From Candidatus Heimdallarchaeota archaeon (lineage in GTDB: Archaea; Asgardarchaeota; Heimdallarchaeia; Heimdallarchaeales; Kariarchaeaceae): a stretch of 32,000 nucleotides of DNA. Below are positions 13,107 to 28,625 of the stretch, in pieces (within the stretch, counting starts at the first letter, position 1; the number at the start of each line of letters is the position of its first letter). The stretch is taken from the NCBI GenBank assembly GCA_030149205.1, contig JASBSB010000007.1, forward strand, positions 120,001-152,000, given 5' to 3'. The notes under the pieces were generated by a model. That model saw nothing but the letters and a program-made list of their open reading frames with translations, was not told the origin of the DNA and made no database searches. Both the position numbers and the translations under genes were made by a program.

Positions 13107-13239
13107 AGCGAGATATCGAAGTGGCCAAACGAGATGGACTCAAGAAGGTGAGAATACGCTTCTCACAAGTTTAGGCATCCATTCCCGAAGGGGTTCGGGG
13201 GTTCGAATTACAAAATGTACGAAATTCCCCCTCTCGCTA
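13107..13239 (+). tRNA. tRNA-Leu(CAA) with two introns: 37/38 (13145-13176) and 59/60 (13208-13225)
   Basis: Acceptor AGCGAGA/TCTCGCT with A73, ATGGA-CTCAAG|A-TCCAT, long variable arm CCC-GAAG-GGG, T stem GGGGG/CCCCC. BHB core TTCG/CGAA. Confidence 0.88.
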
Positions 13240-22483: not shown

Positions 22484-22609
22484 GTCTGAGTAGCTCAGCT
22501 GGTTAGAGCGCAAGACTCATAAGTAAAATAAAGGCAAGACACAACACTGTGAAATCTTGAGGTCGCGGGTTCGAGAAAAGTTTTTCTTTCGAAATTCCCG
22601 CCTCAGACA
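22484..22609 (+). tRNA. tRNA-Met(CAT), probably elongator, with two introns: 37/38 (22522-22553) and 59/60 (22576-22595)
   Basis: Acceptor GTCTGAG/CTCAGAC, D stem GCTC/GAGC, anticodon stem CAAGA/TCTTG, T stem GCGGG/CCCGC. BHB core TTCG/CGAA. Ile2 identity not excluded. Confidence 0.9.
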
Positions 22610-22670: not shown

Positions 22671-23474
22671 TTGTTTAAAGCAAGCCATCCATTTTCCGGG
22701 ATTATGACCACCTTATTTTCGATTATTATTACATCGAAAGTGACAAAGAACTTTGAAGTTATTGTGATCGTTGGGTCCTTAATCTTGCTTTCTCAGCTCA
22801 TAGTTGGGATTTCAAATGATTTTTTAGATTTAGAAACTGATAGACTATACCAACCAGACAAACCATTAGTTAATACCACAATATCTTCAACTCAAATAAA
22901 AATAGCATTGGGAATTTTGGGAGGGGGATTTATAACTCTTGGTTTCCTTTATACGACAGCTATTGGAGCTGTTGTTTTGACAATTGGAATTCTGAGTGGT
23001 CTTAGCTATAACCTTGGATTTAAACGCACAATCTATAGTCCTGGATCATACTTTCTCGCCTTTGGAATGCTTTTTTTGCTTCCTTTTACTTTTGTTAAAC
23101 CTGAGTTGATTTTTAGTGCATCACCAGTTTTTATGATTTCTGGTTTCATCTTAATTTTTCAAGGGCATATACTTAATTCCATAATTGATATTGATACTGA
23201 TAAAATTACGAGGAACTTTAATTTTGTTGTACAACTTGGTGAGAGAAACTCAGTATTCATTGTAATAATTGGAATGTTAGTTCAAATAATTTTAAACATT
23301 GATACTCTACCAGTGGCTTTAATTTTCCTAATCATGCTAATTTCATTAATGATGGTGTATAGAAATTCAAAGAGTTATCAAAAATATTATTATGGTTTTG
23401 TAGTTTTGGGTTTAATCGCAATCAGTCAAATAAAGTTGTTTACGCCCCCAACAGGAATTTCATCTTTTTGGTGA
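22671..23474 (+). CDS. UbiA-family prenyltransferase
   Basis: NDFLDLETD...DKPL and NSIIDIDTD Asp-rich motifs, many TM helices. TTG start uncertain. Confidence 0.8.
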   Translation: MFKASHPFSGIMTTLFSIIITSKVTKNFEVIVIVGSLILLSQLIVGISNDFLDLETDRLYQPDKPLVNTTISSTQIKIALGILGGGFITLGFLYTTAIGAVVLTIGILSGLSYNLGFKRTIYSPGSYFLAFGMLFLLPFTFVKPELIFSASPVFMISGFILIFQGHILNSIIDIDTDKITRNFNFVVQLGERNSVFIVIIGMLVQIILNIDTLPVALIFLIMLISLMMVYRNSKSYQKYYYGFVVLGLIAISQIKLFTPPTGISSFW

Positions 23475-23534
23475 TTTTGAACCTGTGACCTTCCGGTTAA
23501 CAGCCGGATGCTCTGCCAGCTAAGCTATGGAGGC
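23443..23534 (-). tRNA. tRNA-Asn(GTT) with 19-nt intron at 59/60 (23457-23475)
   Basis: Acceptor GCCTCCA/TGGGGGC with G73, TCCGG-CTGTTAA-CCGGA, T stem ACAGG/CCTGT. BHB core TTCA/TGAA. Confidence 0.9.
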
Positions 23535-23736
23535 ATGGAGCTGTGTTTACAGCAATCCGAATCAGCAACAATTCCTATTCTTAAAATCTTAACGAAAGAT
23601 TACGTTGATACTGATTTCTTTTGACACTCTACTAAACATTTCCATTGGTTAAAAATCCCTTTAGAAATAGATTCCAAAAGAAGTTTATTTCACAACTATT
23701 AAAAGCTAATATAAAGAACTTAATTTGAAATAGATT

Positions 23737-27116: not shown

Positions 27117-27221
27117 TGCTGAGGGGGGGAATTTCATTATTGATTATAATTTTGAACCCCCGAACCTCTATAGGATAAGGATCTGAACCTTACGCCGTTG
27201 ACCAAGCTGGGCGACCTCAGC
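27117..27221 (-). tRNA. tRNA-Leu(CAG) with 20-nt intron at 59/60 (27131-27150)
   Basis: Acceptor GCTGAGG/CCTCAGC with A73, TAAGG-TTCAGAT-CCTTA, variable arm CCT-ATAG-AGG, T stem GGGGG/CCCCC. BHB core TTCA/TGAA. Confidence 0.9.
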
Positions 27222-27836: not shown

Positions 27837-28226
27837 TCAGTAAACATAGGCAAGCAGTCTACCACCAACGTGTTGATCAACTGCATCCCTTTGTGTCATC
27901 ACACCATTTGGTGTACTTAACACGAGAATTCCAAAATTCACTGCAGGAAGGTATTGCTTTTCAAATCTGTCAAATTCTGACACTTTTGCAGGTCTTCTAG
28001 GCTTAATTACTGCACATTTGTTGATTCTTCCCAACAACTGCACCTTAAACTGACCACCTTGTGCATCTTCTATCCTTTCAAACTCACCTACATATCCAGA
28101 TTTTTGTAATGTTGCAAGTACATTCTCTAACAGGTTACTAATAGGGCGTAAGTGAACGACCTTTCTTCCAAGTCTATCAAAGGTATTAATTTTATTTAGC
28201 GCATTTGCTAAAGGGTCTAGTAACAT
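27837..28226 (-). CDS. rps8: 30S ribosomal protein uS8
   Basis: DPLANAL, GYVGEFE, LLGRINKC, STPNGVM, GGRLLAYVY. SD GAGGTG. Confidence 0.97.
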   Translation of the reverse strand: MLLDPLANALNKINTFDRLGRKVVHLRPISNLLENVLATLQKSGYVGEFERIEDAQGGQFKVQLLGRINKCAVIKPRRPAKVSEFDRFEKQYLPAVNFGILVLSTPNGVMTQRDAVDQHVGGRLLAYVY

Positions 28227-28230
28227 TGTA

Positions 28231-28404
28231 TCATCCACCTCTTGTTCCTGAAGTTCGGAATCCTAAATCTTCCGCAATTTCTCTAAAACATCTTCGACAT
28301 ATCAGCAAATTTGCACGACGTATAATTCCGTGATGTGTCCCGCATCTTCTACATTTGCGGGTTCCTTCACCTACGGAACGCCCTTTCTTTTCTATTGTTC
28401 TCAT
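28231..28404 (-). CDS. rps14: 30S ribosomal protein uS14 (Zn-binding; missing from the ORF track)
   Basis: Manual translation: MRTIEKKGRSVGEGTRKCRRCGTHHGIIRRANLLICRRCFREIAEDLGFRTSGTRGG. SD GGAGTGA. Confidence 0.95.
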   Translation of the reverse strand: MRTIEKKGRSVGEGTRKCRRCGTHHGIIRRANLLICRRCFREIAEDLGFRTSGTRGG

Positions 28405-28510: not shown

Positions 28511-28625
28511 CGCCTCCGCCGGGAATTTCACCAGTAAAGCTCAATTACTAAGATTTGAACCCGGGTCGAAAGAGTTCTGCAGAATATGACAGTCTTCCAT
28601 GATAGCCTAACTACACTACAGAGGC
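28511..28625 (-). tRNA. tRNA-Asp(GTC) with two introns: 37/38 (28575-28586) and 59/60 (28525-28553)
   Basis: Acceptor GCCTCTG/CGGAGGC with G73, GAAGA-CTGTCA|C-TCTTT, T stem CCGGG/CCCGG. BHB cores CTGT/GCAG and TTCA/TGAA. Confidence 0.9.

Follow-up and report, generated by a model that had tools for sequence, protein, structure and literature searches.

An apparently single-copy tRNA-Asp(GUC) gene with two predicted introns in a Heimdall-type Asgard archaeon

Interrupted tRNA genes in known systems

A 2024 study (PMC11291895) and a preprint by Goswami et al. 2026 (10.64898/2026.10.13.758758) deal with heavily interrupted tRNA genes in Asgard archaea. The genes described there resemble those of the present genome in several respects. 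Multiple introns occur in one tRNA gene, and the introns are concentrated at 37/38 and in the T arm. The T-arm introns are mostly canonical bulge-helix-bulge (BHB) introns, and most genomes have two EndA paralogues. Intron gains are frequent, recent and lineage-specific, which we also count as a likeness to this genome. The preprint gives two EndA paralogues in 44/60 Asgard genomes, and the two paralogues found here match that pattern. These works are centred on Atabeyarchaeia and Jordiarchaeia/Freyarchaeia, and several Heimdallarchaeia lineages show less than one intron per gene. Unlike in those lineages, about half of the tRNA genes recognised in the present Heimdall-type species have a 59/60 intron. 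The tRNA-Asp gene analysed here is not described in either work.

BHB introns in the T-loop form a recognised class (PMC6379350). The Lokiarchaeota tRNA-Sec (Mariotti et al. 2016, PMC4989117) likewise has, in an Asgard host, a protein-spliced T-loop intron of about 30 nt. The tRNA type differs, and the single intron reported for this tRNA-Sec is 31 nt long; the 29-nt intron described below is therefore no record.

The crenarchaeal (alpha-beta)2 EndA systems (Hirata et al. 2011, PMC3241643; Hirata 2019, PMC6379350) are similar in having BHB introns beyond the anticodon loop as well as very short bulge-helix-loop (BHL) introns at 37/38; the BHL introns of A. pernix were termed 'very short (5-7 nt)' (Hirata 2011, PMC3241643). 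As here, crenarchaeal EndA combines a catalytic subunit bearing a loop lysine (K44 in A. pernix, K72 here) with a second paralogue. The differences are that the present host is an Asgard archaeon, not a crenarchaeon, that its EndA substrate range is predicted from sequence, and that the non-standard intron tested in A. pernix was in the D-loop, not in the T-loop as here. The two-intron tRNA-Asp is an ordinary example of the tRNA interruption already published for Asgard archaea.

Gene layout and splice motifs

The gene occupies 28511–28625 on the minus strand of the window, the 32,000-nt stretch of DNA that was analysed. Reading of the sequence and splicing in silico resolve these 115 nt into three exons and two introns of a tRNA-Asp(GUC). 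Exon 1 (28587–28625, minus strand) is 39 nt long with a long D-loop, covers tRNA positions 1–37, and comprises the 5′ strand of the acceptor stem, the D arm (with the G10-U25 and U13.U22 positions) and the GUC anticodon. Exon 2 (28554–28574, minus strand) covers positions 38–59 and contains C38, the 3′ strand of the anticodon stem, a 4-nt variable region, the 5′ strand of the T stem and the T-loop bases UUCAAA. Exon 3 (28511–28524, minus strand) covers positions 60–73, that is, U60, the 3′ strands of the T stem and of the acceptor, and the discriminator G. The gene ends at this G73, and CCA is not encoded. Intron 1 is 12 nt long and interrupts 37/38 (28575–28586, minus strand); intron 2 is 29 nt long and interrupts 59/60 (28525–28553, minus strand). 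Both were delimited by a strict geometry test and by the MFE fold, with the ARAGORN intron call i(42,12) in addition for intron 1 and a census entry (C8, minus strand, 148553, L=29) for intron 2.

Excision of both introns in silico leaves 74 nt, which ARAGORN calls as tRNA-Asp(gtc) with a cloverleaf and the anticodon GUC, bearing out the original prediction of a double-intron tRNA-Asp. When the T-loop insert alone is excised, ARAGORN reports a tRNA-Asp with a 12-nt anticodon-loop intron. The unspliced gene receives no ARAGORN call, and default ARAGORN and Rfam at its gathering threshold return nothing at the locus. A permissive Rfam search of the locus (E<=10) gives the unspliced gene a partial match to the tRNA family of 13.9 bits (E 7.5), which is below the cut-off of 29. 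The snoRNA and miRNA matches returned at the same threshold were rejected as chance. Neither strand has an ORF of at least 60 aa overlapping the gene.

The spliced tRNA, read directly, carries G73, G34-U35-C36, C38 and G10-U25. These are aspartate identity elements known from yeast tRNA-Asp, and by analogy they would act as Asp identity elements in this organism.

Both introns are placed alike in 7-nt loops, after the sixth loop base. In intron 1, C32-U35 (CUGU) pairs with the intron bases GCAG (28580–28577), including one G-U pair. The 3′ cut lies within the bulge A-A-C38, before C38, and the 5′ cut lies after A37 within an 8-nt loop. The 5-bp anticodon stem flanks the intron, and just a 5-nt spacer runs from the 5′ bulge base to the 4-nt helix strand. 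Since the inner helix is absent, the motif is a relaxed BHL, with an exon helix, a 3′ bulge, a 4-bp helix and a 5′ cut site in the loop. In intron 2, U54-A57 (UUCA) pairs with the intron bases UGAA (28530–28527). Its bulges are A58-A59-U, divided after A59, and A-U-U60, divided before U60. The helix h is the 5-bp T stem, and h′ is a 7-bp interrupted inner hairpin in which AGUAA (28549–28545) pairs with UUACU (28537–28533) together with a C-G and a U-G pair. Intron 2 is thus a canonical archaeal BHB (hBHBh′). A C/D-box guide inside this 29-nt intron was considered and rejected on size.

The strict geometry test, which was run genome-wide, required 4/4 central pairs (the 4-bp helix), 3-nt bulges and at least three exon helix pairs. 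Its background is 694,869 passes among ~470 million position-length combinations, or about 0.15%. Both Asp introns pass at exactly the boundaries that had been proposed from the letters of the sequence, 37/38 for the 12-nt intron and 59/60 for the 29-nt intron. A37 is also the last base of intron 1 and U60 the first base of intron 2, so the sequence by itself leaves the splice boundaries ambiguous by one base; BHB geometry selects 37/38 and 59/60 among the one-base-shifted boundaries.

The MFE fold of the whole precursor forms the cloverleaf and both splice motifs together. It contains the AGUAA/UUACU pairing, in agreement with the AGTAA/TTACT stem first noticed in the 59/60 intron. The z-score of this fold against shuffles is -1.89, which is not significant alone; the support for the structure therefore comes from geometry and comparison, not from energy.

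Splicing machinery and gene function

The genome encodes RtcB and two EndA paralogues, the latter in the regions C4:500599-500844 and C2:623316-623576. Paralogue 1 forms a gapless alignment with the A. pernix alpha subunit (3p1z_B, E 3e-31), and retains the catalytic Tyr/His/Lys; its K72 falls opposite Lys44 of the crenarchaea-specific loop. The loop lysine enables the enzyme to cut relaxed and non-standard introns (PMC3241643, PMC6379350). Paralogue 2 is closest to the EndA of M. kandleri and M. jannaschii. In one pairwise alignment it has Ser opposite the catalytic His125 of M. jannaschii, with the Tyr and Lys kept. We predict, with moderate confidence, that paralogue 2 is the structural (beta) partner subunit.

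It is highly probable that the locus is a working tRNA-Asp(GUC) gene, apparently present only once in this Heimdall-type Asgard archaeon, and that both introns are cut by EndA and the exons ligated by RtcB. Transcription would yield a precursor of ~115 nt plus leader and trailer, whose anticodon arm and T arm would each extend into a splice motif. An (alpha-beta)2-type EndA would cleave within the bulges, releasing intron 1 from between A37 and C38 and intron 2 from between A59 and U60. RtcB would then ligate the three exons, and the CCA end would be added later. The T-loop intron, a textbook bulge-helix-bulge, would require no special EndA specificity. The 12-nt BHL intron would rely on a broad specificity, which is given by the catalytic-subunit loop lysine in the crenarchaeal enzymes. 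We infer the transcription of the gene, the exact cut sites and the independence of the two excisions.

Another path would be that one insert only is a true EndA intron, the 12-nt insert being cut elsewhere, or being cut after the T-loop intron has been removed. In the latter version splicing would be ordered and, like that of eukaryotic BHL introns, would require the mature elbow. In its favour, the motif of the 12-nt intron is relaxed. Enzymes of narrow specificity cleave a BHL only when the pre-tRNA is full-length, and the eukaryotic one requires the D/T-loop elbow (PMC6379350), which intron 2 disrupts here. However, the catalytic subunit has the loop lysine by which A. pernix EndA cuts a BHL even in a mini-helix (PMC3241643). 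At least six other tRNAs of this genome have BHL introns of 10–13 nt, some of them without a T-loop intron, and under the strict test C38 and the 5-bp stem are restored by no boundaries other than 37/38. We therefore regard this path as quite improbable, and prefer two EndA introns in a working gene.

The orthologues allow a closer look at the functional state of the gene. G002, of the same genus, has a tRNA-Asp that is likewise interrupted at 37/38 and 59/60, by introns of 17 and 30 nt, and both pass the strict test. The tRNA-Asp of G003, also of the same genus, has only a 37/38 intron of 32 nt. Those of G004 and G011 have only 37/38 introns as well (21 and 23 nt), and that of G007 has no intron. 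In the neighbouring family the 37/38 introns measure 29–35 nt, sometimes accompanied by a D-arm insert. Three loci of neighbouring family f2 (L008, L013, L017) have this extra D-arm insert and encode CCA, unlike family f1. Orthologues that have no T-loop intron score 46–58 bits with the Rfam tRNA model (Infernal), as ordinary tRNAs.

Across six family members, 119/126 cloverleaf cells of the tRNA-Asp stems are paired, and the U13.U22 position accounts for 6/7 of the unpaired cells. In 7/21 pairs both sides are altered among the six members; for pairs 4-70 and 31-43 the compensation is unique to this genome. Neither blastn-short with the mature sequence nor the intron-removal census found a second tRNA-Asp in the 3.31-Mb, 12-contig assembly, which is 93.5% complete with ~6% missing. 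The gene is apparently single-copy and, as far as can be judged from its sequence, almost certainly functional.

By-eye inspection found no clear TATA box at the usual distance from the gene and no T-run after the discriminator, unlike in the relatives. As the T-run present in relatives is lacking, read-through into the ribosomal protein operon is conceivable. An ORF at 28231–28404 (minus strand) encodes 57 aa with two CxxC pairs and is a putative zinc-type ribosomal protein uS14. It starts 106 nt downstream of the tRNA-Asp gene on the same strand and overlaps the start of uS8 (27837–28238); uS8 is in turn followed by uL6.

The missing terminator T-run, and the failure of standard finders at the locus, could be taken as signs of a decaying tRNA pseudogene that has acquired two insertions and lost its processing to a working tRNA. 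Against this, the locus is the sole tRNA-Asp found in the genome, its stems are all intact, including the two uniquely compensated pairs, and both inserts sit exactly on strict splice motifs. Moreover, ~23 other tRNA genes, covering otherwise missing isoacceptors, share the architecture. Decay is thus very improbable, and a functional gene remains the preferred reading. That mis-joined reads, from assembly or binning, account for the inserts is hardly credible even for a metagenome-assembled draft of 12 contigs: ~23 genes spread over several contigs have this architecture, the G002 orthologue has it in an independent assembly, and the inserts are precisely motif-shaped. The neighbouring aminotransferase has 66–67% identity to proteins of two 'Candidatus Heimdallarchaeota' MAGs, with the next matches at <=45%, and the G+C content of the genome is 35.5%.

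Intron lengths and the accumulation of T-loop introns

In a census of this genome, each strict candidate intron was removed and the genome re-scanned with ARAGORN. It yielded ~23 distinct tRNA genes with a 59/60 intron, 17 to 29 nt long. A 37/38 intron is also present in 12 of them, showing that the double-intron layout is common in this genome. Five genes with a 59/60 intron lie in the window, at 13107–13230 (plus), 22484–22609 (plus), about 23440–23535 (minus), 27117–27221 (minus) and 28511–28625 (minus). The insert in such genes is typically A + hairpin + YGAA + AU. The T-loop introns mostly begin with A and end with YGAAAU, whereas the Asp intron begins with U.

These numbers qualify what was originally said of the intron lengths. 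The Asp T-loop intron, proposed as the longest, exceeds the other four in the window, but in the genome its 29 nt are equalled by Ser(CGA) and Leu(GAG). The T-loop intron of Pro(UGG) is 28 nt, or 30 in a relaxed register. The 12-nt intron was called near-minimal, and it does hold little beyond the splice motif, with no inner helix; however, Pro(CGG) has an intron of 10 nt and Arg(CCT) one of 11 nt. Anticodon-loop introns of this genome are most often 12 nt long, a length seen in at least six tRNAs (Met, His, Thr-UGU, Gly-GCC, Gln-CUG, Asp). The two shorter BHL anticodon-loop introns, both with clean geometry, lie outside the window, at C8:37404 for Pro(CGG) and C8:229180 for Arg(CCT), and are better probes of the lower size limit than the 12-nt Asp intron. 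As a substrate for defining endonuclease size limits, the Asp gene is usable but not special, given how common the 12-nt length is here, the shorter introns and the published intron of 31 nt.

Exact matches to the T-loop-intron signature number 15 here, 6 in G002 and 0–2 in each of 39 other relatives, the pattern being derived from, and biased towards, this genome. As an unbiased proxy, intact T-loops were counted and a reversed-pattern control subtracted. The proxy gives ~16 for this genome (G000), 26 for G002, 33 for G003 and 47 for G001. The T-loops of the congeners G001 and G003 being mostly intact, the 59/60 accumulation here looks species-level and recent. Direct checks of single genes agree. 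The Leu(CAG) gene of G003 has no intron. For Asn(GUU), a T-loop intron is confined to this genome, whereas G002 and G003 have a 37/38 intron in its place.

The 29-nt Asp intron has no sequence relatives among the 23 other T-loop introns here and five of G002. Beyond the structurally forced tail, it shares no sequence with the T-loop intron of the G002 tRNA-Asp (z 1.1), so that homology of these two introns is unproven. What is conserved between them is position and shape, not sequence. Within G002, the sister species, the T-loop introns of Leu(CAG) (L062), Leu(UAA) (L063) and Asp(GUC) (L002) form one family, 29–30 nt long with ~90% identity, and their similarity scores z 5.5–7.5 against shuffles with the forced tail removed. 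The presence of one family in three tRNA types is evidence of intron copying between tRNA genes. Such copying was found to be rare in the focal Asgard families of the 2026 preprint (10.64898/2026.10.13.758758). We suggest, tentatively and as a minority possibility, that the Asp T-loop intron is the product of a recent, species-level wave of 59/60 insertion, spread by copying via the near-identical T arms.

The tRNA-Asp finding matters mainly for annotation. Default ARAGORN and Rfam recover only about half of the tRNA genes of this genome and no tRNA-Asp; once the 59/60 intron class is recognised, a complete decoding set is restored. Two odd ARAGORN calls, a 'tRNA-Lys' at C2:550767-550995 and a 'tRNA-SeC' at C4:656008-656167, with introns of 138 and 69 nt, may represent tRNAs whose introns are multiple or long, or they may be spurious. 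For biology, the gene adds one more well-shaped example to the published picture. The concentration of T-loop introns in one species, together with the G002 intron found across three tRNA types, bears on the question of how such introns arrive. If the insertion wave is true, it would mean active BHB-intron mobility in a Heimdall-type Asgard archaeon.
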